A DNA stretch of 64,000 nucleotides from Candidatus Woesearchaeota archaeon (GTDB lineage Archaea; Nanobdellota; Nanobdellia; Woesearchaeales; SKGA01), in NCBI GenBank assembly GCA_016926395.1, contig JAFGOT010000010.1, positions 4,218-68,217 of the forward strand. Reading direction: 5' to 3'. The first letter of the stretch is position 1; every line of letters begins with the position of its first letter. Shown here piece after piece: positions 11,101 to 64,000 of this stretch. The notes under the pieces were generated by a model. That model was not told where the DNA came from. It did not search any database and worked only from the letters and a program-made list of their open reading frames with translations. The position numbers and the translations under genes were made by a program.

Positions 11101-11901
11101 TAAATCTCCAGTTACTAATGTTAAATTATCATCTTTGACCTTTACATAAATATCAGCACTTGGAACCATCGAAGGTTGTGATGAAATAGTTTCTAATTTT
11201 GTTTCTCCTGATAGAACAATTACTTCATCTTGTATTTCAGGGCCTTGAAAATCAACATTAATTGGTCCGAAATTCAACTGACCAAATTGTCCTAAATTAT
11301 CTTGTACTATAGCTGTAAAAATGAAGTCGCCACTAACCTTTGGAGGCTTAATTAAAACGGATTTTTCATAAACACATAATCCTTTTTCACCAATCGTTTC
11401 TTTGTAAAAGACATCTTCTTCTGTTGTTACTTCAATCGATTGTATTCCTGCACAATTTTCTGAACCCATAAATGCTTCATCATAAGCAGTTATAGTCAAA
11501 TTCAACTTGTCTCCAACAGGTTCGACAAGAAGTTTTGTTATTACAGGTGCTCTTCCATCAACAATAAATGGCCAAGTAAAAATTTGTGTTAATCCTTGTT
11601 TGAATGTTAAAACATATTCTCCTGCTTCAGTTGTTGTTTTTTCAAATGTGTGATCACATACAAAAAGACCTTCGTCATTTTCTACGCAACTCATTGGATA
11701 ATCTTGATCTCCACGAACAATACTCACTGCCGCATCAGAAACTACGTGAACTTTTGTAATATCCTCTAACCCTCGGATACCTTTTATTCCATTAGTACCA
11801 GTTATATCTACAGTTGTAACAGCGTTAACCATTGAAATCTGCATCAGAAAAATACTTAGAAGCAAAAAAAATAATAATTTTCTCTCTATTCGCACACCCA
11901 T
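8131..11901 (-). CDS. giant secreted surface protein (signal peptide, beta-rich region, hydrophobic patch, long coiled coil, Cys-rich C-terminus)
   Basis: 1,256-aa ORF. Signal-like N-terminus is 'RKLLFFLLLSIFLMQISMVNA'. A heptad-rich segment ('AAIDEAKNDVASAEKDLASSEDGLKKVNEEIEATKKEL ... LDTINRQLERVDQAKK') is followed by a C-terminal domain with many Cys. No family recognised. Confidence 0.65.
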   Translation of the reverse strand: MGVRIERKLLFFLLLSIFLMQISMVNAVTTVDITGTNGIKGIRGLEDITKVHVVSDAAVSIVRGDQDYPMSCVENDEGLFVCDHTFEKTTTEAGEYVLTFKQGLTQIFTWPFIVDGRAPVITKLLVEPVGDKLNLTITAYDEAFMGSENCAGIQSIEVTTEEDVFYKETIGEKGLCVYEKSVLIKPPKVSGDFIFTAIVQDNLGQFGQLNFGPINVDFQGPEIQDEVIVLSGETKLETISSQPSMVPSADIYVKVKDDNLTLVTGDLSSLSRDPELKSQDSSRTARCTKQGLMYECVFEGVQINPGATEVPIKVTATDFKGHVSTKNISAHFAIQTKLSEVTYFGRDAKENCFEGTCYYKGGANKLFMHITSQDVEIKPYLITVSASGLSTLGYIKMASCNDTGDYYTCYGYLPVDKTISSGSRQTVALTTPSTDSLGSPLKGISSSTVIVDQDPPVAKTDLNFSVLCPITGEKAYLTINVTDEVSPIIRISASPEKITTDNFFQNDCQRQGNIFVCKLELSNFVSYAEKEDLAVTVKDLAGNQIEDLTIPIQVCEAETQVPPESLSSITSNPTQKIDKRMMTFMPIRAYLPLDFNFKNQNTEIVDLDTTGCVGTKDLAGRPYFINEHSKQPILVVPIGGREQLLDSSVTINCTIKVYEKRGVVRYTKPELEELVVRMPTFNQELGTIDIATQEKLTDIVGEINDLQDSIDDWHTYLDIIDTICTISNTFNTVFSTISAIETVVYGVAVGFSWVPGVDTMWTNLCSNLFEKLNSLRSKVNPIGSLTKMLGGDSGTASNDKLNVGIDSFLKLGCLVYNCGLCSPEGVLQAVNIVGSYVEQTKSLNDKAAIDEAKNDVASAEKDLASSEDGLKKVNEEIEATKKELASVCGGKPIENCGGDPAKVKTLTDKMTSLQADKEIYDQAVDLQKEELSFAKQRQVEALKGKQETLQEGLNAYGIVDGSGNQVTVENLNSYVASLNAEKSSISKDIQSIKNDVSEIQNIEDGKIKRTAMRENRQSLRKTESQLDTINRQLERVDQAKKYDSLTAEQSAFAQRQQDIQEGGIVERMDPFEDRKFAAGCLCGPGIVYAKEKLKQLNCREYKCIEENAKNGLPITSCEIDFDQGKCVYYDGPMSNEGFWDSFFTKIWQNYFWGEVGDDGYGSGFAIANQVVLTSRKIMCPEEYLPFGLGDNLWGSALDSMSKCSIPSGWRSVTCSLTGAYLTAANYESYFQNPWQPGLRELEGEDFCSGIPLEVEE

Positions 11902-13446: not shown

Positions 13447-13520
13447 TGGGTCGGGGGGGATTTGAACCCCCGACTTCTCCCTCTTCAGGGGAGCGCTCTG
13501 CCGGTCTGAGCTACCAACCC
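13447..13520 (-). tRNA. tRNA-Phe (anticodon GAA), no encoded CCA
   Basis: The reverse complement folds by hand into a 74-nt cloverleaf: GGGTTGG TA GCTC AGACCGGCA GAGC G CTCCC CTGAAGA GGGAG AAGTC GGGGG TTCAAAT CCCCC CCGACCC A. It has a 7-bp acceptor stem (one G-U), 4-bp D stem, 5-bp anticodon stem and 5-bp T stem. Confidence 0.9.
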
Positions 13521-19923: not shown

Positions 19924-20541
19924 TTAACTTGGCTCGCTTGTTCGAGCAATTAATAATATTGTAAAAAAGGATATTAAAATAATTAAGAGCATCCCTAATA
20001 TTTTAGGATTAAATAATGTTTGTGTCATGTTTGTTCCAAAATCATTTGTTGCGACACTTGAACCAGTGTTAACTGATTGTGTGCCATAAGCACTTGAAGA
20101 TGCGTTTTGAGTTACAGTGGTCGATGTTTGACCAGTTCCTTGTTCTAAAACCTGTTGTCCAAAAGAGTTAGATATTGATACTAATAATATTATTACAAAA
20201 GTAATTATTAAGACCCATTTTATAGCTCCTTGTTTTATTAAATCTTCAAAAAACTTTTCATCAGTTGTGAACATTCTGGCTACGAAAAATGATAAAAAGA
20301 TAAAAACGATTATTACTGTAAACCAAGGTGCCATCGTTGACACCACAGATACAAATCCACTTGAAAAAGAAGATAAAAATGCAACGGTCAATGCTACAAT
20401 TGCATATATTCCGTTATGGCCACTTACATCCTTGAAAATTTTTGACATGTTAAGGAAGGCATACACTATCAAAAACACAAAAAGGAAAACAAATACGCTT
20501 GATACATGTTGAAAAAGCGCTAAATCAAGGAATGTTGCCAT
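19924..20541 (-). CDS. multi-pass membrane protein, divergent member of a tandem paralog trio
   Basis: 205-aa ORF. 'VFVFLFVFLIVYAFLNMSKIF' matches the first-helix motif of the two upstream paralogs. It has a Ser/Thr/Gln-rich loop before the last TM helix. Confidence 0.55.
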   Translation of the reverse strand: MATFLDLALFQHVSSVFVFLFVFLIVYAFLNMSKIFKDVSGHNGIYAIVALTVAFLSSFSSGFVSVVSTMAPWFTVIIVFIFLSFFVARMFTTDEKFFEDLIKQGAIKWVLIITFVIILLVSISNSFGQQVLEQGTGQTSTTVTQNASSSAYGTQSVNTGSSVATNDFGTNMTQTLFNPKILGMLLIILISFFTILLIARTSEPS

Positions 20542-20576
20542 TTTATTATTTTATCTCCAAAGTTTTTAACTCGAAT

Positions 20577-21200
20577 TTATTCTTTTTTACTGCCAACACC
20601 AGTTAGGAACTCTTCAATTCCTTTGTTTCTAGCAGCAATTCTTTTTTCTCTTGCAGCAATATCATCTGGTTTTTTGCCATCCCCTGTGATGAATTTAATT
20701 ATTAATCCAAACACTAAGATTGCAACAACTAATGGAATTATTTCGCTGCTTAGTAGTCTGTAAACCCAAGAAGGTACATTCCACCATCCAATCGAGCCAA
20801 TAAATATTAAGATAACAATAACTCCAGATGCCAAAGTAAACCATTTTCCTGGTCCTTTGCTTCCATCTGCTCTTTTACCAGTCCATAGACCAAGTGTTAG
20901 AAGAGTCATTAAGATTGCAACTAGTAATAAACTAACCTGAGGAAGTGCTCGGTTGATTATTTCTACTGCGTCAAAACCATAATAGTAATTTCCTGTTACG
21001 TGCGGTATTACTACTCCAAACGCCATAACCATTGCAATTACTGCAGAGTATTTTTTGTTTTTATCGTCATCATCACTTAAGATTTTTGTTTTTTCAAAAA
21101 TTGCAAAAACTAAAGTGAAAATCAGTATAAATGGTAAAATTACATCTAGTAATCCCCAGTTATCTAATGTGTAAATTAAACTTTCAAAGCCGTATGCCAT
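20577..21200 (-). CDS. multi-pass membrane protein, tandem paralog
   Basis: The ORF track starts at a GTG (21209) that lies inside the SD 'AAAGGTGA'. The ATG at 21200 is the likelier start. 'LLDVILPFILIFTLVFAIFEKTKIL' is near-identical in pattern to 21309-21887. Confidence 0.6.
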   Translation of the reverse strand: MAYGFESLIYTLDNWGLLDVILPFILIFTLVFAIFEKTKILSDDDDKNKKYSAVIAMVMAFGVVIPHVTGNYYYGFDAVEIINRALPQVSLLLVAILMTLLTLGLWTGKRADGSKGPGKWFTLASGVIVILIFIGSIGWWNVPSWVYRLLSSEIIPLVVAILVFGLIIKFITGDGKKPDDIAAREKRIAARNKGIEEFLTGVGSKKE

Positions 21201-21215
21201 TTTTTTCACCTTTGT

Positions 21216-21263
21216 AAAAAATGGTGCTCAAAAATCGTGTTGATTTTTGTTGTGCCATTTTTT
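21216..21263 (-). terminator. nested hairpin between two paralog genes (possible terminator or processing site)
   Basis: The inner stem CAAAAATC/GATTTTTG (8 bp, 5-nt loop) lies inside an outer A6TGG..CCAT6 stem. The T-run is on the 3' arm of the minus-strand transcript. Confidence 0.3.
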
Positions 21264-21308
21264 TAGCCTTACATGAATATTGAGTTTTTTATTTCTCAAT
21301 AATTATCG

Positions 21309-21887
21309 TTATTCTTCTTTTTTCTCTTTCTTGCCTTCAGATTTTTTATCAAATCCACCAGTGACCCATATCATGAATCCTACAAAGACAAGTATCATCA
21401 AGATTGTTGCAACATGAGCACTTTGCCAGTTGTTAACTAAAAAGTCATATATTGCTGCTAACCATCCTAGTGCATTAAGCGTGATCATTAATATACCGAT
21501 TGCCGCTACAATAAAAAAACCAGTTTTCCATCCTTTTTCTAGTTCAAATTCTTTTTGGCCAGTATGGGTTATTCCTACTGCCAACATAAAACTAACACCC
21601 ATAACAACAATAATCATCGTGTTAGCAATTATTTCACTAATTATTCTTACTAGTTGAGCTGATGCAATTACAAAAAAACCAATCGTAAAAGCAACCATGC
21701 TGTTTAGGTTTTTTCGAGTGTATGTGTATTCCTTTCCGTTGTGTTTTACTACTTCCAAACCTAATATTTTTGATTTTTCTAAAAATGCAAATACTAGAGT
21801 AAAAATTAATAGGAATGGCAAAACAACATCATAGATTCCAATTTTTGCCATGAAGGCAATACTTCCAGCTAACACACTCTGCGACAT
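21309..21887 (-). CDS. multi-pass membrane protein, tandem paralog
   Basis: 'IYDVVLPFLLIFTLVFAFLEKSKIL'. The ATG at 21887 lies about 25-30 nt downstream of a TATA core, which is a leaderless geometry. The ORF track's GTG at 21902 is less likely. Confidence 0.6.
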   Translation of the reverse strand: MSQSVLAGSIAFMAKIGIYDVVLPFLLIFTLVFAFLEKSKILGLEVVKHNGKEYTYTRKNLNSMVAFTIGFFVIASAQLVRIISEIIANTMIIVVMGVSFMLAVGITHTGQKEFELEKGWKTGFFIVAAIGILMITLNALGWLAAIYDFLVNNWQSAHVATILMILVFVGFMIWVTGGFDKKSEGKKEKKEE

Positions 21888-21907
21888 CTTCTTTATAACC
21901 ACGCTTT

Positions 21908-46567: not shown

Positions 46568-48664
46568 TTATTTTTTAATAACTTCTAAGTCTTCAGAACC
46601 TTTTTTTCTAGATTCTTCAAATTTCGAAAATCCAACCACTAATCCACCAATTAAAGGAATGAACAATAAAGGCAAAAGCGTTCTCCAGTCAAAATCAGGT
46701 TTTACATCATCTGATAAAAGAATGGTGTTCCCTGTTAGACTAACATTTTTCTCAACTCTATAAGAAAGTTCCACAGGTTCGTCAACGTTTTCTAAATGCC
46801 ACATTATAACAGGATCGTCTTCCAATATTATAGGTTGTATGCTATAAATTAAATCTTGAGCACTCAAAGCTACTTCTTTTGGAATTACTTCAACAACATC
46901 TATACTGGTTTGATTTTGAATTGGCTCTACACGTATAACCACTTTTGTTGAGATATCTTCTTGAGTTTTTTCTGATTTTTTTTCTTCTTGTTCATAAACT
47001 ACTTTTTTCTGAATACGGACTTTTTCATTTGCTTTCTCTTGCTGTTGGTTTATGTTTGTTTTTAGAACTTTTTCTCTTTGGAGTATTTTTGTTAAGTCAT
47101 CTCTTGATTGGTTTGTTAAATTTACACTTGGTGTTTCTATTTTTGATTCTGTTATTTGCGTAAAATTTCGTGGTTCATTTGTTTCAATTCGTATGATTTT
47201 TTCTGGTTGTTTAGCTACTAGCTGTGTTGCTTTTTCAGGAATTTTAACTTTTTCTTTCAAGGTATCACCAAATCGTTCAACAGAATACTTTGAAAGGTTT
47301 GTTTTGTTAGCTAACGTTTTTTCTTGAGTAGGTAATTGTTTTATTAAATATAACGTGCTATTATCGTCAGTTATTTTAACAGGAGTTGAAATAATTGTAG
47401 AATTTTGAGTTGTGTTATTGGTTATGTTTTCAAAAGTTAAATCATCGTTTGTTGTATTAATTGTAGAGTCATCGTCTTGTGTCTCGTTCGTTATATTAGT
47501 AGTTGAATTAATTTCAGTTGGATTTATTGTTGTGTTAACAACGCAAACACCATTACAAATAAAATCTTCTTTACAATAATACATTTGATTATCGCAAAAT
47601 TCTCCAGCACCAACAATCACCGGTTGAGAGTTGGTAAGGCTTAACTCGCAAACACCATTTAAGCATGCTAAGTTATCACCATCACATTTATAATTCTGGT
47701 TATTACAATATTCTCCAAGACCCACATAAAAAATATTATCAACTAAATTTTTACAAATATAATCAGCGCCACATTCCAAACCAATCGCACAAACTTCATA
47801 TTCTTCGTAACAAGATTCTCCATCGTTTTTTGTTATTAGTATATGTTTACAGATATTATCCCTACAAATATACCCTGATTCACAAGGCAGACTTGTTGAT
47901 GAGCATGCCAAACCTGCAAGAATGTATTTTGTTTTACAAACATTATTCATACACACTTGATTAATAGCACACGAGGGACTGCAATAATCTAAAGGATAAA
48001 CTTTCACTCCAAAAGTATTTATTTTTTCTCCTGAGAGGTACAAATTAAACAAAGTATCCTTTTGTATTGAACAATGAAAAATTTGCTCTTGAGTAATTTC
48101 ATCAATATTATTTGTTTCAAAAGAACAAGCAGGATCTAAAGATAGTTCTCGTAACTCATCAGATACTTGTCTTGTTTGAATGTTAAACTCTTTCCCTATA
48201 AAAACATATTCAGGGCTGTTTGTATCAACGGTTGTTTTTAGTGTCGTTTCAACAATTTGAACAGTAAAATGTATTATTTCTCCATTTATATTTCGAAGAC
48301 CTATCTGCGAGTCTTCATTCAGATTTATTGCCCACCTAGCAACCACTCCATCCGCAGAGACGGCCATGGATTCAGGAGAATATGTCTTTCCATCTAAAGA
48401 TGCAAGTTCAAAGTTATTTTTTGCACTTGCTCTTGGAGCAGATAAAGAAACTGTCAAAACATCCCCTTCGTTAAGAACTGTTAAATAAGTTAGAGTTAAT
48501 TCGTTTTGACCAATAACCGGATCAATATATTTTACTACACTTTGCGTATAACCTTCAGTCTTTGTCGGGTTAGAATTAACAGTTATCAGTGCATTGACTA
48601 AAAACAATGTAAGTAGAAAAAAAAGTATAAAAAATAAAAATATAAAACTTTTTTTACGATTCAT
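46568..48664 (-). CDS. C-terminally anchored surface protein with Cys-rich modules and an N-glycosylation-sequon-rich linker
   Basis: 698-aa ORF. It has an N-terminal signal/TM, five Cys-rich modules, and an Asn/Thr-rich tract ('NTTINPTEINSTTNITNETQ...NITNNTTQNSTI'). The C-terminal module 'IQPIILEDDPVIMWHLE...LTGNTILL' is followed by a TM helix and a basic tail. Confidence 0.65.
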   Translation of the reverse strand: MNRKKSFIFLFFILFFLLTLFLVNALITVNSNPTKTEGYTQSVVKYIDPVIGQNELTLTYLTVLNEGDVLTVSLSAPRASAKNNFELASLDGKTYSPESMAVSADGVVARWAINLNEDSQIGLRNINGEIIHFTVQIVETTLKTTVDTNSPEYVFIGKEFNIQTRQVSDELRELSLDPACSFETNNIDEITQEQIFHCSIQKDTLFNLYLSGEKINTFGVKVYPLDYCSPSCAINQVCMNNVCKTKYILAGLACSSTSLPCESGYICRDNICKHILITKNDGESCYEEYEVCAIGLECGADYICKNLVDNIFYVGLGEYCNNQNYKCDGDNLACLNGVCELSLTNSQPVIVGAGEFCDNQMYYCKEDFICNGVCVVNTTINPTEINSTTNITNETQDDDSTINTTNDDLTFENITNNTTQNSTIISTPVKITDDNSTLYLIKQLPTQEKTLANKTNLSKYSVERFGDTLKEKVKIPEKATQLVAKQPEKIIRIETNEPRNFTQITESKIETPSVNLTNQSRDDLTKILQREKVLKTNINQQQEKANEKVRIQKKVVYEQEEKKSEKTQEDISTKVVIRVEPIQNQTSIDVVEVIPKEVALSAQDLIYSIQPIILEDDPVIMWHLENVDEPVELSYRVEKNVSLTGNTILLSDDVKPDFDWRTLLPLLFIPLIGGLVVGFSKFEESRKKGSEDLEVIKK
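47543..47983 (-). repeat. five tandem protein-level Cys-rich modules (4 Cys each; C-x3-8-C-x5-7-C-x3-4-C)
   Basis: 'CSPSCAINQVCMNNVC', 'CSSTSLPCESGYICRDNIC', 'CYEEYEVCAIGLECGADYIC', 'CNNQNYKCDGDNLACLNGVC', 'CDNQMYYCKEDFICNGVC' (residues 228-374). Confidence 0.6.
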
Positions 48665-49644
48665 TTTTTCTTCCTAGTATTAATAGTGCCAAAGTAAATT
48701 ATAATCAAAACAACCAAAGGAATTAAGATTAAAGGCATCAATATTTTTTTTAAATCTGTTTTGTCTTGTTCATTAATTGCACCAACTAACAAAATGGTAT
48801 TCCCTGTCAAATCTTCATCTACCAAACCTTCTTTTTCAATTTCATAAGATAATTCATCCGTGTTTGAATCTTCAATGTGCCACATTATTAATGGATCATT
48901 TTCAAGAATGGTTGGTTCAACTGAAAAATGAATTAAAGAAGCGTCTTGTGCAACAGATTTATCAATATTTTCTATAATATATATTTCGTTGTTCTTGGCA
49001 TTATCTAACTTGAAAGTGGTTTTAGATTTTGTTATAATTAAATTTCCTTCATAAGTTAATACTTCTTTCTCGGTCTCTTTTGTTATTTTTGTCGTTTTAG
49101 CATTTTCTATCATTAAAGCAAATTCATCCTCAGATATATCAATTCCTTGTTCTGATAATTTTTCTCGTATTTCAAAAGAGTTTTCTGGTATTTCAATCGT
49201 TAAAGGAATTGTTTTTTCAACAACATTTCTATCCAATAAATCTCTTGCTTTTACATTTAAGGAAAAATTATTTTCGTATTCAATTTGATTATCTGATTTT
49301 ATCGCAAAATCAAGATCTAAACTTTGCGTAGCATATATTGGCCATTCAAATATTAAATAAGATTCATTTCCAGGAGCGTCATCTAAAGCATAAAAGTCTT
49401 TGTCAAGCTCAACACCATCCACGCTTAAAGTCAAATCACCATTAAAACCTGTTTTTGGGAAAAACATCGCGCCAGCCACTATATTGCTCTTTTCTAATGT
49501 GGAATTTGGTATGCTCAAATATAATAAACCTGAATTAACAGATAATAAATCTCCATTTTCTAGGAAAAAATTGTAATCTAACGTTTGAGCCATAACTGCT
49601 GGCGCCAATAGAATAATCATCAATAATACAACTAACCGTCTCAT
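48661..49644 (-). CDS. C-terminally anchored surface protein, paralogous C-terminal module to 46568-48664
   Basis: 327-aa ORF. Signal peptide 'LVVLLMIILLAPAVMA'. 'VEPTILENDPLIMWHIED...LTGNTILL', then a TM helix and 'RKKK'. 4-nt overlap with the downstream gene. Confidence 0.6.
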   Translation of the reverse strand: MRRLVVLLMIILLAPAVMAQTLDYNFFLENGDLLSVNSGLLYLSIPNSTLEKSNIVAGAMFFPKTGFNGDLTLSVDGVELDKDFYALDDAPGNESYLIFEWPIYATQSLDLDFAIKSDNQIEYENNFSLNVKARDLLDRNVVEKTIPLTIEIPENSFEIREKLSEQGIDISEDEFALMIENAKTTKITKETEKEVLTYEGNLIITKSKTTFKLDNAKNNEIYIIENIDKSVAQDASLIHFSVEPTILENDPLIMWHIEDSNTDELSYEIEKEGLVDEDLTGNTILLVGAINEQDKTDLKKILMPLILIPLVVLIIIYFGTINTRKKK

Positions 49645-49728
49645 TGTTATCTATTTGACAAAAAACGATTTATATAGTTTTCGTGTTTGTGAAAGTTTTT
49701 AAATGATAATATACAATATAAGGATATT

Positions 49729-51219
49729 ATGCTAAAAAAGAGGTTTGGTGATTGGAAAGTTGGCATTGAAGAAATTATTCTCTTTTTAATCATCATTCTT
49801 AACGTTTTTGATGCAATAGAACACCTTCCAAGCACATTAGATTACATTAAAAAAATAATTTCTTGGGCTGCTTTAGGATTTATTTTTTACAGAGCCAAAC
49901 CTACGAAAATAATTTTTGGCACATATCAAAAAGGAATAGAAGATATCATGTTAATTTCAGGATATTTTCTAATTTTAATTAAAGATCTTGTTTCGTATGC
50001 AATGAGTTCTGTCAATGATGCTTCAAGCTTTCTTGTGCCTTTTTTTAATGCTTTAATTAAGAACCAAAGCAGTATTGAGATTTTTGGTATTTACGCCGGA
50101 ATGTTGCTTATTTTGGCCGTTAGTATCAACATGATTCTTAAACACCCTATAAGAGGCCCTAGCGTCATGCACATAATTCATGAAGACGGTCCTATTCCAA
50201 ATAACTTCAAAGATTTTTTTCATAGATTATTAACTAGTTTTGCAGTCCTTGTTGCTTTTTATTTGATTGTGTTTAATTTAGTTATGGAGTGGCTCGCTAT
50301 TGCAATTGATGCTCCATTACTTATGATTGCTCTTGGAACATACATTTTTTTTATTATCAAACATCGAGAAAAATTCAATTCTCGTTCTTTTTTATCCAAA
50401 TTTGGTGATTTTGGAAGTTCGTTCTATGAGGATGTAATAAAGCATTTTACGTATAAAAAAACAATTTTAAGGGCTTTATTTGCGATGTTAGTTTTGCATA
50501 TTGCTACTGAATCACTTCATTTTATTTGGCCTTACGTTTTTGGCGTTGCAGATTCTCTTTATTTTGGCCTTTTAAGTTCTCCTCATCTTTCAATGTTTCA
50601 AGTTTTTGCCTTAGACTCCATTGCAACAGATTTCCTTGGAAATGCACTTTTGTTTGTCACAATAGCTGGCAACATAATAGCCATCTTATTCTTGCTTTTA
50701 GCTCCTGGCTATTTGTGGTATTTAATTTACAAAAATAAGAAATTTACTCTTAGTAAAATGCAGATAGGTATTTTAATTTCATCTTTATTAATGTTTATCC
50801 TTTCTCCCGCATTTAAGATTCGACCTTTAACTAACGAAGCGCTTATTGGGGTTAATATTTCAGGTCATTCAATTGTTCAAAACTCAATTATCGGCATTCC
50901 AGCCACTGTTTTAATTGCTTTATCAGTGGGCCTAATTTGTGCACTATTGTCAACAGATATCTCCAAAGAAAAAAAGATTATGAGGCTAATAACGATTGTT
51001 ACTCAGATTTTTTTCACAATATACATTGCTTTGTTTACATATTCAATAAGCAATTATTATATTCAATCGATTATTTATTTAAGTACAATCAAAAAATATG
51101 TTCTTTTGATAATATTTGCATTATTTTTTATTATCACAGTCTTATTTTATTTGTTTGGAACGATTGGATTTATCAAAGATACATCCGCTCACGCTAAAGA
51201 GCATTTGACAGCCAAATAA
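49729..51219 (+). CDS. polytopic membrane protein of unknown function
   Basis: 496-aa ORF with more than 10 hydrophobic segments. No motif recognised. Confidence 0.5.
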   Translation: MLKKRFGDWKVGIEEIILFLIIILNVFDAIEHLPSTLDYIKKIISWAALGFIFYRAKPTKIIFGTYQKGIEDIMLISGYFLILIKDLVSYAMSSVNDASSFLVPFFNALIKNQSSIEIFGIYAGMLLILAVSINMILKHPIRGPSVMHIIHEDGPIPNNFKDFFHRLLTSFAVLVAFYLIVFNLVMEWLAIAIDAPLLMIALGTYIFFIIKHREKFNSRSFLSKFGDFGSSFYEDVIKHFTYKKTILRALFAMLVLHIATESLHFIWPYVFGVADSLYFGLLSSPHLSMFQVFALDSIATDFLGNALLFVTIAGNIIAILFLLLAPGYLWYLIYKNKKFTLSKMQIGILISSLLMFILSPAFKIRPLTNEALIGVNISGHSIVQNSIIGIPATVLIALSVGLICALLSTDISKEKKIMRLITIVTQIFFTIYIALFTYSISNYYIQSIIYLSTIKKYVLLIIFALFFIITVLFYLFGTIGFIKDTSAHAKEHLTAK

Positions 51220-56539: not shown

Positions 56540-57139
56540 CTATTTTTTATTTAAAAGCTTATTTATAAAGGCCGAGTCGTACCCTCGCTTGATTAAAAGG
56601 TCTTCCAACTGGTTCTCAGTGTATCCTCGTTTTCTTAAATTATTAATATAAGGACTTAAGCTGATTATTTGTTTTTTTTCATCACGCAAAATAGCTAGTT
56701 TGTGAGCTATAACCAAAACAACAACAATCAAAATCAAAATAATTCCAAAGATACTAGCAAAGAGAATCCAATTATTGCTAGGAATATTTCTTTCCTCATT
56801 TCGGGGCTCATCAGATATAACGACAATTTCTGTTTGAAAATCAAGATTCGTGTTGTTTTTTTCTTCTAAAGAAATGTTGTTTTTATTTGAAGCAGATTCG
56901 TTAACAACTAAAACAGCAGTATCAACTGCATTATATTCATCTCCAAAATCGCCCTCACAATAAAGATAATAGTCATCGCCCACCAAATCATAGTAATTTT
57001 CTGGATCATCTAAACAAAATGATTGGTTCCATTCCATCAGCTCCCCATTTAATGTTTGAACTTCAAAGGAATTAACAGAGTGAAAAGACAAAATTAACAT
57101 AATAAAATAGACTAATCCGAAAAAATATTTTGTTTTCAT
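56540..57139 (-). CDS. bitopic membrane protein with cytoplasmic C-terminal 'GY' helical repeat
   Basis: 199-aa ORF. Signal 'FFGLVYFIMLILSFHSVNS', acidic ectodomain, TM 'WILFASIFGIILILIVVVLVIA', then 'YINNLRKRGYTENQLEDLLIKRGYDSAFINKLL'. The start lies 1 nt after the stop of the 1,369-aa gene. Confidence 0.55.
   Translation of the reverse strand: MKTKYFFGLVYFIMLILSFHSVNSFEVQTLNGELMEWNQSFCLDDPENYYDLVGDDYYLYCEGDFGDEYNAVDTAVLVVNESASNKNNISLEEKNNTNLDFQTEIVVISDEPRNEERNIPSNNWILFASIFGIILILIVVVLVIAHKLAILRDEKKQIISLSPYINNLRKRGYTENQLEDLLIKRGYDSAFINKLLNKK
56543..56665 (-). repeat. third copy of the protein-level 'GY' helical repeat (see 4055..4384)
   Basis: 'SPYINNLRKRGYTENQLEDLLIKRGYDSAFINKLLNK' aligns position-by-position with both repeats of the 456-aa protein. 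Confidence 0.55.
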
Positions 57140-57140
57140 T

Positions 57141-60100
57141 TTATACTAAAAAGGTTTCATACCCATATTTTGAACTTATTTGATCTACTCCTTGAGCAAC
57201 TAGCCCTTCTTGGTTTAAATCAATTTGTTGATATACTAAAATCGCTGGTTTGTAGTATTTTCCCATCACATTGTATTTACTAACGACATAAGAAGTATCT
57301 CCATCAACAAGCATTATTTTTGAGTTAGCATTTACACTTGTAGAAGATCTAACTGCATCATTAAATGCAGATATTAACTCTTGATCTTGTTCTATCAAAG
57401 CTCGCGTATCTTCTAGGTTGGTAATGTCATATCTATAAGTATCACGAAGTTTTGCTAACACATCATAACCTGAATATTTACAAAAACGATCAGTTTCAGT
57501 TCTTTTGCTTTCGGCAATATTGAATTGGTTGGTCCCATACTCGAAATGCCAATCTTCATTTCCATACCTTACAAATCCCAAAGAACACATTATATCTTCC
57601 ATCAAAAGGGGATTTACTCCTTTTTTAGTAACCGCATCTTTCATTTCAATATCAATAGCGCCTGAAACCATGTGAGGACATAATTTTTGACCTTTAGGAT
57701 TCGGATCACATGCTAAACTAGTATCGTAACCATTGGCAACAAATAACTTTTGTTGAATATCATAAGTCCTATATGCTTGAGTTATAGATATTTCTAAATT
57801 TAATGGTTCTAAATAAAGTTGAGAAAGTTCATGTAATTTTAAGACCAATTCCTTATTTCCCGCACATATTTTTCCAACACGCGTATTTTTTTCATCACAA
57901 GTTACTCGAGGTATATTTGCTATTCTATACAAATTTTCTCCTGTCGTTGGATGTTTTATTCCGGGATAGACTTCAAGTTCAATATCAGTATCATCAAACT
58001 TTGCAATTTCTGGTTTTGCAGCTTTTCCGTATAATTCTTCTAGCGTAATTTTTGGCTGATAAAAATTTTTACATACTAAACCTGAAATATATGATGATTC
58101 AGGAATTACTTTTGAAACTAAGCTTCCTGCCGTCATATCAGGCATTGGAAGGCCCTCCCAGTCAAAAGATTTGTTGTTTTCGTAAGCATCGAAGGAAGTT
58201 ATTTTATAATAATAAGACATTCCTGGTTCGAATGGAAAATCTCCCCCATAAAATCTTAGTCTTGCATAATAAGTTATTTTAGAGTTTGTCGTTGTCTTGT
58301 AAAGAACACCAATCGTGTCTGCTTTTGATGGGTCTTCTATTTCTATTGCATCTATTGAATAAAATTCATAATCAAAATAATTATTTGTTGAGTCTTTGTT
58401 TGTAGATATTTCTAGAGCAAATTTGTCTACAAAATGATCATCAATCGGAACATCCCAAGAGAGCATTGGAACGATGTCCTCAAGACAAGACGAGTAAGAT
58501 GTTTTTCCATACGTTAGTTCTGGCGCTTTAGTATCATTTAGATAAACTGAGAAATCAATCGTCTCATCAGAAAAGGTTGTATGTGCTTGTAACCTAAAGT
58601 TGTGTTTGTTATCTTTACAAGATAATTGACCATAACCTTTTTTGTAAGGAACCCATTTCATATCATTTTTTCCTTTAACAACAGCTAAAGAATCAAAGTC
58701 AACACCAACTTCCATAGATTTATCTTTAACAGGTCTTTCTATATCAAAATAAGTTTTATTTTTTTGATTATCATAAGTAATTTCTAAGTATTCTACATCG
58801 GAGAAGTCAAAAACAGCATCCGCAAGGTTCGCTATTGCTTTTAATGGTGCAAAGGCGATTTCTGATAAAACACTTATTGTTCCATCTTCTTTTTCTTCAG
58901 TTGTTTCGACAATATAAAATTTTACTGGATTAAAAGGAAGAGACAGTAAATATTTTTGAGTATCTGAGTCAAGACCATAACTATCTCTATCACCTACATA
59001 AACCACGCCTGATTTTTCAAGGCGTATTGCAAAATCTTTCGTTGGTTTTTTCAATTGCGTGTTCAACTTTAATTCACAAGTGCAGCTTTCCTGACCATTT
59101 TCATAACAATCATATATTTGATCTATAAAATCATATCCAACAGCATTTTCTTCATCATCTATTGTTATTTTAATTTGATGTTTAGAATTAAAATTACTTA
59201 TTTCATTTTTTATACATACATCTAATTTATCAGTACATTTTTCAGTCACATAATTTACAAAAGAATTTATTTCATCTAATTCTTCAAAGTTAATCTTGTC
59301 TTCTGTTATGAATTTTGGATTTATTGTAAAATAACTATTAGATTTTACTCTAGACCCACTAACTCCCGCCATTAAAGATCCTGAGCACTGTTCTTGCAAA
59401 GCTTTTGCAACCAAATTAGGATATAAAAATATTTCATCATGTTTTGCTTTTTTCTCAAACGCGCCGCCCAATCTTGAAGCTCCCGTTTGTACATCTTCGT
59501 AAGTTATATCACTCCATTGCAAAGTAGAAGGTGGACGACCTAATCTTGCACTAGCGGCTTCTTTAATATATTTAGTGGTTGTTCCTCCTGAATTGTATGC
59601 CATTGCAACAAAGTAAAAGTTAGGATTTTGAGGATCAACTATTCTCGTGTCTGTCATCAAAGAATTAAGCAAAGCAGCACCAGTCATTATTCCTTGTCTT
59701 GTATCTCCTGCTTTTAATTCCTCATACGAACAATATTCATTTGGTTGTCGATTTATTGACTCACAAGTTATTGGTGCAATTTGCATCACTGTGCACATTC
59801 CAACCTCATTACAATTACCTTTACCAGGAGATCCTCCTCCTGACAAATATAAGTCTGCAGCAGACCCTCCATTTACTTCTGTATTCATTATTGCTAAAAT
59901 TAGTTCTGCAGGAACTTTAGGATATTTTTCGTGTGCTTCTAGAACATATTTTAATGAATCATGAGAATTTAAACTTCCTATTAATTCACTAACTGATTTT
60001 CTTGAGCCACTAAGTTGATTATTTATTTGTGTGAAGTCAACAGGAACAACACAATCACCACCTGATGACTCTTCAAAACCAGGTAGATTTTCTAACCCAG

Positions 60101-61250
60101 AATTAGAATATTCTAATCTTAAAACCAAATTAATTTCTGTTTCTTCATTCTTGAAAAAGGAACTTGATAACGTTTCTCTTACAAGTCCTGACTGTGGACT
60201 AGAATGAACAATTTCATCATTCCCAACATAAACCATCATGTGCGTTGGTATTCCATCTTCAGGATAAGTGAATAATATGTCTCCTGGAAGTGCGTTTTGT
60301 ATTATGTTCTCTTTCGTACAAGAATCCCCTTCACAAACTATGTTTCCTTTTTTTGCGTCTTCAAAATATTCTTGGGTTGTTTTTCTCGTTTCAAAGAAAT
60401 TTACTGTTGTGTGTTTTCCAAGCCACCACAAAAAACCCGCACCATCAAATCCTGGCTTTGTAAATTCGCCAGTTTCTTCATTGACACTTTGTAATTCTAC
60501 ACCATAAAAAATATCTGCTAATAATGAATCCGCGTAGCTATAAGGTGATGATCCTCCTTTAACATATTGCATTGAAGTTCCTGATGATTTGTAAAATTGC
60601 TCAAAGTATGTTGCTCCTTGTGAAAAACAATCTCCTGAAGAGCAAACAAAAGTTCTTTCGTCTTTGTATGTTCCAAACAAACCTACAGGGTACTTAACTG
60701 CTTTAGATTCATCAAATGTTGCTTTTGAAGTTATAGGTATGTTTAGATTTTGGACCGAACCTTCAATTCGGATTTTATCTTTTTGAAGATTAGAATCTCT
60801 TTTTGATGTAATTATATCAATATAAGTGTTTCCTGCCAGAGAATAGTCTTTGTAACCAGATAAATAATTGACTATTGTTCGTCTATAATAGTTTGTATAG
60901 CTCTCTAAAAAATCAGGTTGACAATTATCATTTTCAGAATTGTAATTTGGATAAAGATGAATACCGCATTTTTTGAATTGTGGTTTTCCTGTTGTTTGAA
61001 ATTCATATATACCGCTATTTTTGAAGAGCAAATCTTTTGCTAAGTTTTTAGAGTATTCTCCGCTTAATTCAACATAATTAGTTACTGCTTCTGATTGTTC
61101 ATTAGCAAACAAGATATCATATTGTTTTAGACCAATAGGAGTCTCTAAAGGACTTCCACCAAATACATCAAACACTCCTCCAAATATCATCAAGAGTAAA
61201 AAGACAACCCCAAATATGGGCCATGGATTAAATGCTTTTTTGTATTTCAT
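57141..61250 (-). CDS. N-terminally anchored giant murein-hydrolase-like protein (NlpC/P60-like + lytic transglycosylase + VanY/M15 peptidase modules)
   Basis: 1,369-aa ORF. TM helix 'WPIFGVVFLLLMIFGGVF'. The three modules are listed as separate features. A beta-rich middle region of about 490 aa and a tail of about 130 aa have no assignment. Confidence 0.8.
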   Translation of the reverse strand: MKYKKAFNPWPIFGVVFLLLMIFGGVFDVFGGSPLETPIGLKQYDILFANEQSEAVTNYVELSGEYSKNLAKDLLFKNSGIYEFQTTGKPQFKKCGIHLYPNYNSENDNCQPDFLESYTNYYRRTIVNYLSGYKDYSLAGNTYIDIITSKRDSNLQKDKIRIEGSVQNLNIPITSKATFDESKAVKYPVGLFGTYKDERTFVCSSGDCFSQGATYFEQFYKSSGTSMQYVKGGSSPYSYADSLLADIFYGVELQSVNEETGEFTKPGFDGAGFLWWLGKHTTVNFFETRKTTQEYFEDAKKGNIVCEGDSCTKENIIQNALPGDILFTYPEDGIPTHMMVYVGNDEIVHSSPQSGLVRETLSSSFFKNEETEINLVLRLEYSNSGLENLPGFEESSGGDCVVPVDFTQINNQLSGSRKSVSELIGSLNSHDSLKYVLEAHEKYPKVPAELILAIMNTEVNGGSAADLYLSGGGSPGKGNCNEVGMCTVMQIAPITCESINRQPNEYCSYEELKAGDTRQGIMTGAALLNSLMTDTRIVDPQNPNFYFVAMAYNSGGTTTKYIKEAASARLGRPPSTLQWSDITYEDVQTGASRLGGAFEKKAKHDEIFLYPNLVAKALQEQCSGSLMAGVSGSRVKSNSYFTINPKFITEDKINFEELDEINSFVNYVTEKCTDKLDVCIKNEISNFNSKHQIKITIDDEENAVGYDFIDQIYDCYENGQESCTCELKLNTQLKKPTKDFAIRLEKSGVVYVGDRDSYGLDSDTQKYLLSLPFNPVKFYIVETTEEKEDGTISVLSEIAFAPLKAIANLADAVFDFSDVEYLEITYDNQKNKTYFDIERPVKDKSMEVGVDFDSLAVVKGKNDMKWVPYKKGYGQLSCKDNKHNFRLQAHTTFSDETIDFSVYLNDTKAPELTYGKTSYSSCLEDIVPMLSWDVPIDDHFVDKFALEISTNKDSTNNYFDYEFYSIDAIEIEDPSKADTIGVLYKTTTNSKITYYARLRFYGGDFPFEPGMSYYYKITSFDAYENNKSFDWEGLPMPDMTAGSLVSKVIPESSYISGLVCKNFYQPKITLEELYGKAAKPEIAKFDDTDIELEVYPGIKHPTTGENLYRIANIPRVTCDEKNTRVGKICAGNKELVLKLHELSQLYLEPLNLEISITQAYRTYDIQQKLFVANGYDTSLACDPNPKGQKLCPHMVSGAIDIEMKDAVTKKGVNPLLMEDIMCSLGFVRYGNEDWHFEYGTNQFNIAESKRTETDRFCKYSGYDVLAKLRDTYRYDITNLEDTRALIEQDQELISAFNDAVRSSTSVNANSKIMLVDGDTSYVVSKYNVMGKYYKPAILVYQQIDLNQEGLVAQGVDQISSKYGYETFLV
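57534..57872 (-). other. VanY / peptidase M15 (D-Ala-D-Ala carboxypeptidase-like) module
   Basis: Residues about 1127-1239: 'ITQAYRTYDIQQKLF', 'CPHMVSGAIDIEM' (the S/C-x-H-x2-G-x-A-x-D zinc motif), 'NEDWHFEYG'. Confidence 0.65.
59556..59963 (-). other. lytic transglycosylase (SLT/GH23-like) module
   Basis: Residues about 430-565: 'PAELILAIMNTEVNGG' (catalytic Glu position), 'GMCTVMQIAP', 'GIMTGAALLNSLM', 'FVAMAYNSGG'. Confidence 0.65.
60183..60578 (-). other. NlpC/P60-like module, nucleophile Cys apparently replaced
   Basis: Residues about 225-356: 'YVKGGSSP', 'PGFDGAGFLWWL' (Gly where D-C-S-G is expected), 'LPGDILF', 'THMMVYVGNDEIVHSS'. Confidence 0.5.
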
Positions 61251-61253
61251 TTT

Positions 61254-61871
61254 TTATCGACGTATGTTTGTTGAAAACGTATTTGAATCTCTTTTTTCAT
61301 CAGTAGTTTTTATTTTGAACAAAATATATTTGTCAGTAGGATTAAATTGATCTCCTTTTTCGTAAAAAGGAATTTGTAATTCGACATCTACCTGTGCTTC
61401 ATCAGAATAAACTATTCCCTTGTCTTGTAGGGATTCTGAGCTTGTTGCCCACGTACTTGCAACTATAACCTTGTCTTGTTCTTGACCTAAAAAATAATAG
61501 GTAAAAGACGCCTCGGATTCAAACACCCCAGTTCTTAGGTGTGGTTTTATTGAGACTTCAGCCAAATCATACAACGCACGTCTTAATTCATTTTTTTCAG
61601 TGTAGTTGTTTAGATTAAAGTAATAATTAGCCCAATTTGCAACCTCTCTTGTTTCACCCTTGAATTCCATTGGTGTTTGCAAATAAGTTCTTGCTAATTG
61701 TATTGTCTGGTATCCTTCTTTTAGACTAGCTACTTGTTGATAATTATCTTGTTTTTCTCTATCAGACATATTCATCATCAAAAAAAGACCAATAATAACT
61801 AAGGCTCCGCCTACTAAAAAGTAAAACCATTCTGAAGTATAGTCTCCTTTCTTGTTATTTTTTATTCTCAT
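61254..61871 (-). CDS. small N-terminally anchored (pilin-like) orphan protein
   Basis: 205-aa ORF. 'NNKKGDYTSEWFYFLVGGALVIIGLFLMM' has a basic stretch, a Gly, a Glu at +5 after the Gly, then a hydrophobic helix. 4-nt ATGA overlap upstream. Confidence 0.5.
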   Translation of the reverse strand: MRIKNNKKGDYTSEWFYFLVGGALVIIGLFLMMNMSDREKQDNYQQVASLKEGYQTIQLARTYLQTPMEFKGETREVANWANYYFNLNNYTEKNELRRALYDLAEVSIKPHLRTGVFESEASFTYYFLGQEQDKVIVASTWATSSESLQDKGIVYSDEAQVDVELQIPFYEKGDQFNPTDKYILFKIKTTDEKRDSNTFSTNIRR

Positions 61872-62347
61872 GGTGTAAAGTATATCATTCCAGGTTTCAT
61901 TGTTCCGTCATCTTTTGCCACGATTACATATCTTGCATAAGCAATTTTAGAAACAAAGGGATTTCCTATCAGAGCCGTTGTTTTAGGAAAATCTCCCTCA
62001 ATTACGGGTTTTACAGTTATCGTAAATGCTTGTGGATAATTAGACTTAAAACAGGCATCAAGATTTTCATTAGTTACTTTTCTTAAATCAATTACGTTTT
62101 GTTTAATCATATTTGTTTGTGGATCTTCATAAGCAAAGCAAATGTTTGTTGCTCTTGCTAACTTAAAATCTGCATCGATAGAATCATGAACTTCCGTTTT
62201 TGAATCCATATTTCTAACTACAAGGATGACAAATGCTGTGATTAAAGCCCCAACAAATAACACCCATATGACATAGAAGAAAAACTTGTTTGTAGAAAGA
62301 AATCCTTCATGGTCATCTCCTCGTTTATTTTTTAGTAGCTTTTTCAT
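61868..62347 (-). CDS. small N-terminally anchored orphan protein
   Basis: 159-aa ORF. 'KNKRGDDHEGFLSTNKFFFYVIWVLFVGALITAFVILVV'. 4-nt overlaps on both sides. Confidence 0.5.
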   Translation of the reverse strand: MKKLLKNKRGDDHEGFLSTNKFFFYVIWVLFVGALITAFVILVVRNMDSKTEVHDSIDADFKLARATNICFAYEDPQTNMIKQNVIDLRKVTNENLDACFKSNYPQAFTITVKPVIEGDFPKTTALIGNPFVSKIAYARYVIVAKDDGTMKPGMIYFTP

Positions 62348-63222
62348 CGACCAACACCGTAATATTTTGAAAGTGAATAAGATATTAAATAACCCATTTT
62401 TCTTCTAATCGTATCTTCGCCAAATATTTTTTTGTTTTCAATGCTGTTTGCTAAACTAAACTCAATAACTTCCTTTTGACCATAATTTTTTGATATTGGA
62501 ACAGTTAAAAGATTAAGTTCATTTTCTAGTAGTTTTTGCATGTTCTCTGCGATTGCTTTTGTATCTTCCTCACCATCAGTCGAATAATAAATAATATTTT
62601 TGTCATTAACCAAACCGTCATGAGAACTTATTTTAACAGTTAAGGAGTTCGTATCGCCTGTTTCGAAATTTCGTTTTATTTCCTCTTTAACAATAATTGA
62701 TAATTTTTCTAATGTTAAATCAAAACTGTTTACTCCCGTTGTATCAAATTCAACAGTTACATTTGGTTTTTCTTTTGATGTAACTTCAAGGACGTCAACC
62801 GCTTGAGTTGATTTAAAGTCCCCTAGTTTTATCTCATCTCCGGATTTAATTATATAAAAATCAGAAACATCTACATCTTGTTCTTTTGGAATACTCACTC
62901 CCTCTCGCAGAGTAAAATATCTTTTGTTAAACGAAAAATCGGTTTCTGGAGGTATCTCTCCATCTTGAACTAAACTTATAGAATCTCCGTTTAATTTAAC
63001 AGTATAACCATCTAATGTTTCAGGGTACTCATATCTAAAATCATAAGCTGTTGCTTGTGCAATTTCCATCGTTCTTGCAACGTCTTCTGCAGTTACTGCT
63101 TTTTCAACAAGTAAAGGGTTTGAAGATTGACCCATAACGGTTCCAAACATAAGGATTAAAACACCAATTAGTACAAACTCTCCAACTAAATATACTTGTG
63201 TTGATTTTGCACTTTTGTTCAT
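62344..63222 (-). CDS. N-terminally anchored (pilin-like) orphan protein
   Basis: 292-aa ORF. 'MNKSAKSTQVYLVGEFVLIGVLILMFGTVMG'. SD AGAGGGGT lies 6 nt upstream of the ATG. Confidence 0.5.
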   Translation of the reverse strand: MNKSAKSTQVYLVGEFVLIGVLILMFGTVMGQSSNPLLVEKAVTAEDVARTMEIAQATAYDFRYEYPETLDGYTVKLNGDSISLVQDGEIPPETDFSFNKRYFTLREGVSIPKEQDVDVSDFYIIKSGDEIKLGDFKSTQAVDVLEVTSKEKPNVTVEFDTTGVNSFDLTLEKLSIIVKEEIKRNFETGDTNSLTVKISSHDGLVNDKNIIYYSTDGEEDTKAIAENMQKLLENELNLLTVPISKNYGQKEVIEFSLANSIENKKIFGEDTIRRKMGYLISYSLSKYYGVGR

Positions 63223-63236
63223 AAAAACCCCTCTTT

Positions 63237-63998
63237 TTAAGAAACAAAATTAATTAAACTATTTCCTTCGTTATCTATCTCAGATTTCAGTTTATAATTT
63301 GCAGATTCAATAACTAAATTTCCTGCACTTGTTCCTGTGATTGTAATACTATCTTTTTGCACTCCTTTAACACGAGGCATTGGATAAGGAAAAGATGTTG
63401 ATGCTAAAACATCTTGTTCTTTTCTTAACTCTATTGTTGTTATTCCTGTTTTGTTATGAAAGTAGATATTGTATTCTTTTGATGTAGGAACTGATAAAAA
63501 TACATTTACAAAATTTGTCTGTAATTGATATATACAAATATTAATATCAGGATTGTTCTTTCTACAAAGAAGAAAATTTGTTTGAAGTTCCTTATCTAAA
63601 TAGTTAAAACTTTGAATAACTTTATTTGTTTTCTCTAACTCTATTTTTTGTTTTTTAGCATTCTCAATTCCGTTTGTGTAAAGACATTTTGGTTGTATGC
63701 AAACACCTGTTATGTTTGTGTTAGGTATTTTCTCAAAAGTTATATTATAAAGAGGCACGCTAAGAATTTTTTCGTCTCTCTCTTTATTTGTTTGAGGTAT
63801 TCCCATCCCGCCTATAACAACTCCGCCTTCCCAGAAATAATTATTTTTTATTACAAGTCTTCTTTTAGTCATTCCATCTCTATAGAAATTTCCTAAGTCA
63901 ACTAGCACAGGAGCAGCACCTCCTGAGGAAACATATTTATGTTCATCAGGTTCAAAAATACTTGCCATCGTATCTCTAGCAGTTGTTTGTAATCCCAT
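63237..63998 (-). CDS. orphan protein, probably 5'-truncated by the window edge
   Basis: The frame stays open to the last complete codon of the window. The ATG at 63998 may be internal. No hydrophobic N-terminus is visible, consistent with truncation. Confidence 0.45.
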   Translation of the reverse strand: MGLQTTARDTMASIFEPDEHKYVSSGGAAPVLVDLGNFYRDGMTKRRLVIKNNYFWEGGVVIGGMGIPQTNKERDEKILSVPLYNITFEKIPNTNITGVCIQPKCLYTNGIENAKKQKIELEKTNKVIQSFNYLDKELQTNFLLCRKNNPDINICIYQLQTNFVNVFLSVPTSKEYNIYFHNKTGITTIELRKEQDVLASTSFPYPMPRVKGVQKDSITITGTSAGNLVIESANYKLKSEIDNEGNSLINFVS

Positions 63999-64000
63999 TG

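Follow-up and report, generated by a model that had tools for sequence, protein, structure and literature searches.

To our knowledge no member of the Woesearchaeota or Pacearchaeota has been cultivated, their hosts are unknown, and large murein-degrading proteins are among the few clues available. Castelle et al. (2021) described such proteins in Woesearchaeota and Pacearchaeota as fam00969, a family of large murein-like lytic transglycosylases (PMC8204110), and Vigneron et al. (2022) proposed a 'vampiristic' lifestyle from them (PMC9723730). Action on the bacterial wall has been proposed in both papers and in PMC10936187 (see also PMC12352652). Another described arrangement is that of the modular pilins, in which modules are grafted on pilins, as in PilB and PilC of S. 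sanguinis (Raynaud et al. 2021, PMC8179133). The present study deals with a stretch of 64,000 nt from a Candidatus Woesearchaeota archaeon (contig JAFGOT010000010.1), hereafter the window, to which all coordinates refer. It carries, on the minus strand (the strand of the operon), the gene of a 1,369-aa hydrolase, whose family is evidently the fam00969-type family of Castelle et al. (PMC8204110). The published transglycosylases come from the same lineage, measure 1,000-1,850 aa, are extracellular, contain an SLT module and have bacterial murein as the proposed target. The papers treat the protein alone, however, and the words pili and pilin are absent from them in text searches. We report here that the hydrolase gene lies in the distal half of a conserved 'pilin-only' operon of the Woesearchaeota/Nanobdellota (DPANN), and that a class III-like signal layout is predicted to head the hydrolase and almost every other protein of that operon.

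Six open reading frames (ORFs) between 56540 and 63998 are tightly packed on the minus strand, the successive junctions being 1 nt, 3 nt, a 4-nt ATGA overlap, another 4-nt overlap and 14 nt (Table 1). An earlier note on this DNA had read them as one operon that runs past the edge of the window. This was borne out by a Logan contig (L001), which is identical to the window across 16,860 nt and adds upstream, on the same strand, genes of 221, 307, 68/39, 264 and 254 aa as well as a sixth small gene that is cut at the contig edge and is seen as a C-terminal fragment. The operon has at least 11 genes, and the six genes of the window are its 3' end. The gene g458 is completed on L001, and its N-terminus MTFVNYQKG↓SGIPMGILLSLVMIALL is encoded outside the window.

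The class III (prepilin) signal is built from a short basic leader ending in Gly or Ala, followed by about 20 hydrophobic residues. In the hydrolase family a [KR][KRT][GA] motif stands in register right before a hydrophobic helix of about 20 residues in 17/17 aligned members, which are 22-36% identical to the query except for one orthologue at 81%; many shorter relatives likewise have a basic-G/A-hydrophobic N-terminus. The leaders of the upstream genes are RRG↓ATSE (254 aa), KKA↓TNYLIV (264 aa), KRA↓ISNLLI (307 aa) and NKG↓AMEQLVI (221 aa), and those of the window genes are QKG↓SGIPMG (458 aa), KRG↓DDHEG (159 aa) and KKG↓DYTSEW (205 aa). A class III-like N-terminus was found in 8 of the 10 cluster genes of this genome. 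When 19 DPANN loci were counted, the motif was present in 142/173 cluster genes vs 35/202 genes outside the cluster (Fisher p 2e-38), and when the same test was limited to proteins with an N-terminal transmembrane (TM) helix the figures were 142/161 vs 35/102 (p 9e-20). The earlier note had seen pilin-like N-termini in three of the products encoded upstream of the hydrolase; these are real, but the count was too low, as almost all products including the hydrolase have them. Among the larger pilin-like proteins g159 is the best conserved, and in its close orthologues the residues directly past the putative cleavage site are invariant. An AlphaFold2 (AF2) model of g159, made from a 4-sequence alignment (pLDDT 72.7), has a helix at residues 12-70 (about 59 residues) followed by a 5-stranded sheet; an N-terminal helix with a beta-sheet, if the prediction is right, would be the pilin 'lollipop' topology.

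A scan of GTDB genomes gave about 20 DPANN loci titled Woesearchaeota, Nanobdellota or Nanoarchaeia, a few of them probably mislabelled, and 19 were used in counts. Collinearity was assessed by phmmer of the operon proteins against the ORFs of the loci (loci are given L numbers). It was found that all operon genes keep their order in loci whose hydrolases share 25-33% identity. The order is one to three tiny pilins, a large g254-like gene, then homologues of g264, a protein of about 66 aa, g307, g221, g458, g292, g159 and g205, the hydrolase and often a g199-like gene. Homologues of g458 occupy the same position in the cluster in L003, L004, L005, L007, L008, L009 and L010, collinear homologues of g292 were found in L003, L004, L005, L007, L010, L013, L018 and L020, and those of g205 lie immediately upstream of the hydrolase in L002-L007 and L010. 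A word-index search with g159 returned only 4 close sequences. The products that had been taken for orphans are conserved collinear members of a cluster found across Woesearchaeota/Nanobdellota. The tiny pilins are 82-108 aa long, with a near-invariant N-terminus NKKG↓SELSMNVIIIAAIALLVLVIL and a knob with 4-6 Cys; the tiny pilin gene heads the cluster in L010, L013, L015 and L016 and is near its start in the other loci, and in the present genome its tail is the contig-edge fragment at L001:2-184. These tiny Cys-knob proteins are candidate major subunits, and the approximately nine larger, fast-evolving pilin-like proteins are candidate minor or tip subunits.

The neighbours of the operon in the window are archaeal (Topo VI-B, RIO1, a KH/aDim2-like protein, NAC and RPA), as had been claimed before. 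The right border of the cluster is always RPA, usually with YdjM near, and the left border in L015 and L016 is NAC/Sec61-beta. In L002, which comes from another sequencing run and carries the 78%-identical orthologue, the genes follow one another in the same order and meet RPA, YdjM and an ABC transporter at the same junction. Since housekeeping genes flank the cluster across lineages, it is a core locus passed on vertically, not a mobile element. GC content in the window is uniform (0.29-0.36) and the junctions recur in L002 and about 19 DPANN loci, and therefore there is no sign of chimerism or misassembly. The scan for bacterial-type promoters and terminators was uninformative, the organism being an archaeon.

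Several further features were observed in the related loci. Up to four more genes of the pilin-like kind (their products about 166, 350-400, 165 and 170 aa; K(G/A)Q(I/L)Q.GE(T/S)IF) form another conserved sub-cluster upstream of the small pilins, seen in L004-L009, L014 and L069-L071. In L004-L009 and L014 the small pilins are preceded by two to four of them, and in L069 and L071 the sub-cluster follows very large proteins with a Sec signal; in the present genome its place would be past the end of L001. The loci L004, L007, L010, L015, L017, L019 and L020 include GTDB records titled 'uncultured Methanosarcinales archaeon' despite a DPANN-type locus and flanks, and the same DPANN-type locus occurs in L016, under the title 'Euryarchaeota archaeon SM23-78', and in L018, under 'Methanobacteriota archaeon'. 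Such titles are probably taxonomic mislabels of Woesearchaeota-like metagenome-assembled genomes. At 46568-51219 the window encodes a paralogous pair (698 and 327 aa), each member with a Sec signal and a TM helix at the C-terminus, and a 496-aa protein with 11 TM helices, all without Pfam matches, and homologues of the three recur near the cluster in the flanks of L003, L004, L007 and L010.

In the public database the 1,369-aa protein is entered as 'C40 family peptidase' of Candidatus Woesearchaeota archaeon, on a 77-kb contig. The earlier note had described it as a triple murein hydrolase. All three modules are present, that of the M15 type by way of a family profile, but the NlpC/P60 module lacks its nucleophile. 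In the alignment to LytE and MepS the nucleophile Cys is replaced by Gly270 (GFDGAGF vs GFDCSGF in LytE), while His337 and His349 are retained. Gly occupies this position in both orthologues (P0001, P0002), and across the family the position holds C in 13, S in 7, G in 3 and A in 1. The module is a family member by descent and is predicted to be non-catalytic because the nucleophile Cys has been replaced by Gly; it would probably serve as a binding module. In the SLT module the motifs are intact, with the catalytic Glu458 in NTEVNGG followed by VMQI and AYNSGG, and they are conserved across the family segments.

The M15 module (key residues R1161, Q1166, H1193, D1200, E1232 and H1235) falls under the Pfam cut-off as a single sequence (E 0.02, 15 bits vs 27), with a PHROG endolysin match at 1.7e-3. 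A profile of the domain from 15 relatives (A3), searched against PDB, matched 4mur at 1.7e-5 (VanXYc), 2vo9 at 3.4e-5, 4ox3, 4ox5 and 1r44; the structures matched are VanXYc, the Ply500 L-Ala-D-Glu peptidase, LdcB and VanX. In alignment A3 the zinc ligands H1193, D1200 and H1235 are invariant and E1232 is nearly so, and they align with SEH...AID...EPWH of VanXYc. Two activities are thus plausible from the residues retained, glycan cleavage by the SLT module and stem-peptide cleavage by the M15 module as a D,D- or L,D-peptidase. Between these modules the middle region is Cys-rich (C..DNL..C, DC..N.Q..C.C) and has the block CRDNK..FRFQA ... SW ... YYY; the Pfam scan found no domain in residues 565-1089.

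An exhaustive HMMER search with residues 170-1369 of the hydrolase found 146 proteins, 24 of them at E<1e-30. These close relatives (1,000-1,850 aa) have in common the N-domain, NlpC/P60, usually SLT, the Cys-rich middle region and variable extra modules. A word-index homology search with the full hydrolase returned only itself and one 78% orthologue, and one with the N-domain alignment gave zero matches. Pfam over 23 family members recognised NLPC_P60 in 20, SLT in 9, Peptidase_M15 in 3, VanY in 2, Muramidase in 2 and Amidase_2, YkuD, CHAP and Glucosaminidase in 1 each, together with a GDSL/SGNH esterase in 3; VanY or Peptidase_M15 was seen directly in 5 members. The enzymatic modules of the family are murein-specific except for the GDSL/SGNH esterases. 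As nearly all modules are murein-specific, bacterial peptidoglycan is the sole sensible substrate, and we infer that the hydrolase acts on the bacterial sacculus, which agrees with the substrate that had been judged plausible earlier. Pseudomurein was considered as a target and rejected on its chemistry. SLT, M15, Amidase_2 and YkuD enzymes target MurNAc-beta-1,4 linkages or peptides with D-amino acids or mDAP (meso-diaminopimelic acid), and pseudomurein has neither.

Smaller proteins with related modules were also observed. Many proteins of 300-430 aa have a KKG↓TM N-terminus and the same M15 domain (P0026-P0034, P0040, P0042, P0062, P0065, P0070 and others), and further proteins of 300-800 aa carry the N-domain and NlpC/P60 behind a KKG↓TM N-terminus. 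Murein hydrolases of smaller size and pilin-like character seem to be common in the same lineages.

Our favoured explanation, to which we give a probability of roughly 55%, is that a hydrolase-bearing type IV filament or pseudopilus presents wall-cutting modules to the bacterial wall. A prepilin peptidase would trim the leaders. An ATPase and platform of a type IV filament, encoded elsewhere in the genome, would polymerise the small Cys-knob pilin, and the approximately nine larger pilin-like proteins would form a priming or tip complex with the hydrolase, as minor pilins do in bacterial type IV pili and in the type II secretion system (T2SS). The giant protein could be a modular pilin in the sense of PMC8179133, with its N-terminal helix anchored in the membrane or in the type IV filament. 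The NlpC/P60 module would bind murein, SLT would cut glycan strands and M15 would trim or cleave stem peptides. By means of the filament or short pseudopilus the archaeon could anchor to, thin or perforate the wall of a bacterial partner, in episymbiosis or predation. A more specific version, which we hold only tentatively and somewhat below even odds, is a dedicated type IV filament whose tip includes the giant multi-enzyme murein-cutting pilin, an archaeal 'wall drill' for attachment or predation with variable modules tuned to the peptidoglycan chemistry of the host. The earlier suggestion of a surface apparatus that breaches or anchors to bacterial walls gains a pilin-like operon context in this way; its function is proposed from the modules and context, and the idea of wall attack had already been published.

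The window contains candidates for the assembly machinery. The 789-aa ATPase of the secretion superfamily matches A. fulgidus GspE2 (2oap, 3e-27), CpaF and FlaI in PDB, and its NCBIfam matches are FlaI/TadA-like and under the equivalog cut-offs, with BasE among the weak matches. It has an N-terminal extension of about 300 aa and is probably the assembly motor. The 750-aa protein, whose gene overlaps the end of the ATPase gene and for which Pfam and NCBIfam gave no match, is probably a divergent single-gene platform (PilC/FlaJ-like), a candidate by position and topology only.

A number of observations weigh against the filament. The ATPase gene is 40 kb from the operon here and is missing from the flanks of all other loci. 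A prepilin peptidase (A24) was not found among the polytopic window proteins scanned, from a genome of which 64-77 kb is covered, or within 10 kb on either side of the related loci. In 19 genome loci and in 3 metagenome loci, the latter recovered with the upstream 165-aa pilin-like protein, the 10 kb around the cluster contain neither an ATPase nor a platform nor an A24 peptidase. At the level of the signals, g159 and g205 have 5-12 polar residues between the G and the helix, and g292 (motif variant SAKS↓TQVYLVGEF) has Ser, not Gly/Ala, at position -1. A basic stretch followed by a TM helix is likewise the layout of an uncleaved signal anchor. The cluster proteins and small pilins gave zero matches to curated Pfam or NCBIfam pilin or class III signal profiles at E<=0.1-1; in Pfam the hydrolase has no N_methyl or pilin profile match, and g292 is without a Pfam, NCBIfam or PHROG match. 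Foldseek of the g159 model against PDB found no pilin (best E 0.02, TM 0.26), and the AF2 model of the N-terminal 255 residues of the hydrolase (pLDDT 64) had no meaningful match in PDB. What supports the pilin reading is the conserved motif, the logic of the operon and a single model of moderate quality, and not family membership.

Several of these observations suit an alternative in which no filament is made. The pilin-like helices would be uncleaved signal anchors, and the proteins would form a membrane-tethered ectoenzyme complex, a scaffold that holds a murein depolymerase and has as its main task the recovery of amino sugars and peptides from the debris of bacterial walls (necromass), and not contact with a living host. 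The pilin profile and fold searches without match agree with it, as does the lack of a nearby prepilin peptidase and of an ATPase in or beside the cluster at any locus. The combination of glycosidase, amidase and peptidase suits full depolymerisation, and DPANN archaea have been described as fermenters of cell-derived compounds (PMC9723730). On the other hand, Gly or Ala is strictly retained after the basic residues in proteins with about 25% or zero identity, for which the positive-inside rule alone is insufficient. The tiny hydrophobic protein that stands at the start of the cluster or close to it is extremely conserved and resembles a polymerising subunit and not a scaffold, and at least 10 collinear, paralogue-like single-helix proteins are typical of minor-pilin operons. 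We regard the scavenging complex as unlikely, although it has to be taken seriously.

The earlier note had also pointed to the hydrolases of Gram-positive conjugation machines, so that conjugation or a type IV secretion-like transfer of DNA or protein, with the hydrolase in the role of VirB1, PrgK, TraG or CwlT, has to be considered. The order of an N-terminal TM helix, SLT and an NlpC/P60-type module does resemble the hydrolases of Gram-positive conjugative elements, but the comparison does not extend to the neighbourhood. Pfam recognised no VirB4, VirD4/T4CP or relaxase, nor any other gene, in the cluster or its orthologues (L001, L002 and the cluster proteins), the synteny with RPA, YdjM and NAC across deep lineages argues against a location on a mobile element, and such hydrolases cut the wall of the donor itself, of which the archaeon has none. 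We consider transfer highly improbable. The same low standing is given to the view that the hydrolase remodels a murein-like wall of the archaeon's own. Its housekeeping-like conservation and core-genome synteny would fit such a role; however, no murein synthesis gene was present among the window genes scanned (the scan covered part of the genes), these lineages are treated in the literature as having no murein (PMC8204110), and the module repertoire varies wildly among relatives, which is a better fit to an offensive or adaptive role. A lysis or tail module of a prophage or virus, or a misassembled bacterial fragment, can practically be dismissed, as domain-level PHROG matches of the hydrolase to a minor tail protein and an endolysin are set against other cluster proteins without a PHROG match, IMG/VR contigs without relatives, and the uniform GC and recurrent archaeal junctions described above.

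The last gene of the cluster, g199, encodes a protein with a Sec-type signal; its ectodomain is acidic, a TM helix covers about residues 119-145, and the tail (RGYTENQLEDLLIKRGYDSAF) is cytoplasmic. In L002, L007, L008 and L010 its homologues come right after the hydrolase, and in L005 the homologue is one gene farther away. A helical motif of about 28 residues, GYT..Q(I/L)...L...GY....(I/V), is common to the cytoplasmic tail of g199 (56540-56700) and the N-terminus of a 456-aa protein (3014-4384), which connects to g199 homologues by phmmer at E 1e-4. The motif, which gives weak RecX_HTH1 matches, faces the cytoplasm in both proteins. These span the membrane once and are otherwise unrelated, and the motif may be used for docking.

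Other surface genes were observed in the window. The run 3014-11901 on the minus strand encodes a protein of 805 aa whose N-terminus is class III-like (RGRKA↓QVTIFVIIGIVLLVG), a 262-aa protein with 7 TM helices, a signal-anchored protein of 183 aa and a Sec-signal protein of 1,256 aa that weakly matches an SMC-like coiled coil, none of the run having a family assignment; it may be a second pilin or adhesin set near the ATPase. At 19924-21902, on the same strand, there are three tandem paralogous proteins with 5-6 TM helices (205, 210 and 197 aa), two of which share ILPF.LIFTLVFA..EK(T/S)KIL, and no convincing family match was found for them. The Rfam scan found a single tRNA only.

Table 1. 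Coordinates of the operon genes, the parts of the hydrolase and other features in the 64,000-nt window
Feature	Position	Strand	Basis or remark
g458, C-terminal 253 aa	63237..64000 (ORF 63237-63998)	-	complete protein 458 aa; L001:3778-5154
g292, 292-aa pilin-like protein	62344..63222	-	basic N-terminus and one hydrophobic helix
g159, 159-aa pilin-like protein, NKRG↓DDHEGFLSTNKFFFYVIWVLF	61868..62347	-	homologues in 14 loci
g205, 205-aa pilin-like protein, NNKKG↓DYTSEWFYFLVGGALVIIGLFL	61254..61871	-	N-terminal motif and synteny
Hydrolase, 1369 aa	57141-61250	-	ORF list
Hydrolase, class III-like signal MKYKKA↓FNPWPIFGVVFLLLMIFGGVF	residues 1-31, 61158..61250	-	motif kept in family alignment
Hydrolase, N-domain, family-specific	residues 32-263, 60462..61157	-	conserved IG.KQY..L, two Cys pairs, GGxSPY
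Hydrolase, NlpC/P60 (C40) module	residues 264-369, 60144..60461	-	Pfam PF00877 E 4.3e-8, 33.5 bits vs cut-off 23
Hydrolase, SLT / GH23 lytic transglycosylase module	residues 440-564, 59559..59933	-	Pfam PF01464 E 3.5e-5, 23.8 bits vs cut-off 21.3
Hydrolase, middle region	residues 565-1089, 57984..59558	-	conserved columns in family alignment
Hydrolase, M15/LAS zinc peptidase module (VanY/VanX/LdcB-like)	residues 1090-1265, 57456..57983	-	family profile vs PDB
Hydrolase, C-terminal tail	residues 1266-1369, 57141..57455	-	conserved in close orthologue only
g199, 199-aa type I membrane protein	56540..57139	-	last cluster gene
Type IV filament (secretion-superfamily) ATPase, 789 aa	15879..18248	-	Pfam T2SSE E 7e-15
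750-aa protein, about 9 TM helices	13637..15889	-	overlaps ATPase gene end
tRNA gene	13447-13520		after the ATPase/750-aa pair

The present study turns a hint from a single gene into a defined, testable apparatus of 12-14 named parts. The type IV filament would be indicated as the contact organelle of a symbiosis between an archaeon and a bacterium, in parallel to the Saccharibacteria, and a new class of archaeal modular pilins with enzymatic cargo is predicted. Murein-specific modules of this kind could be mined as antibacterial enzymes (compare PMC12352652), and the near-invariant small pilin and the hydrolase ectodomain could be used as markers to find and image the interaction. In the searchable literature we found no account of a class III-type N-terminus on these hydrolases or of the conserved pilin-like operon; peptidoglycan and hydrolases are both absent from a survey of archaeal type IV filament systems published in 2026. 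Relative to the published picture, what appears to be new is the N-terminus of class III type, the conservation of an operon with 10-14 pilin-like genes, the complete set of modules (M15, NlpC/P60, amidase, YkuD and others) and the NlpC/P60 site that has lost its nucleophile.

Minor-pilin operons with a large tip protein are known from Pseudomonas (fimU-pilVWXY1E) and from the T2SS (GspH-K). They resemble the present cluster in having several small pilin-like genes in a row together with a large gene for an effector or adhesin, apart from the genes of the ATPase and platform. PilY1, however, is no pilin and lacks hydrolase modules, and similarity in sequence or fold to the cluster was not detected. 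The archaeal bindosome, the Bas system of Sulfolobus, consists of sugar-binding proteins with class III signals, and is thus a case of archaeal functional proteins that are not filaments but have signals of the prepilin type and are put together at the cell surface by a machine like that of type IV filaments. Its cargo is made of solute-binding uptake proteins and not lytic enzymes, and the lineage and gene set differ. VirB1-like hydrolases (PrgK, TraG of pIP501, CwlT) share the plan of an N-terminal anchor, an SLT or muramidase domain and a CHAP- or NlpC/P60-type endopeptidase; they act on the wall of their own producer, whereas the cluster described here is chromosomal and vertically conserved, and genes of a type IV secretion system were not found near the hydrolase.

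The giant proteins of Omnitrophota (bioRxiv 10.1101/2023.11.21.568195) also belong to ultra-small putative predators and include wall-degrading proteins encoded beside secretion or pilus genes and small genes with class III signals. They differ in that the organisms are bacterial, the giant genes are far larger, no pilin-like character has been reported for the proteins, and archaea are the proposed prey. The bacterial modular type IV pilins have a leader ending in Gly, a hydrophobic helix and grafted modules, and are encoded with minor pilins and expected at the tip (PMC8179133). They are defined by IPR012902, which is unmatched here, and their modules are adhesins or lectins and rarely peptidases, not murein hydrolases. 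The hydrolase, with its KKA↓hydrophobic N-terminus followed by NlpC/P60, SLT and M15, fits the layout of a modular pilin, but compared with the bacterial examples it is archaeal, far larger and multi-enzymatic.

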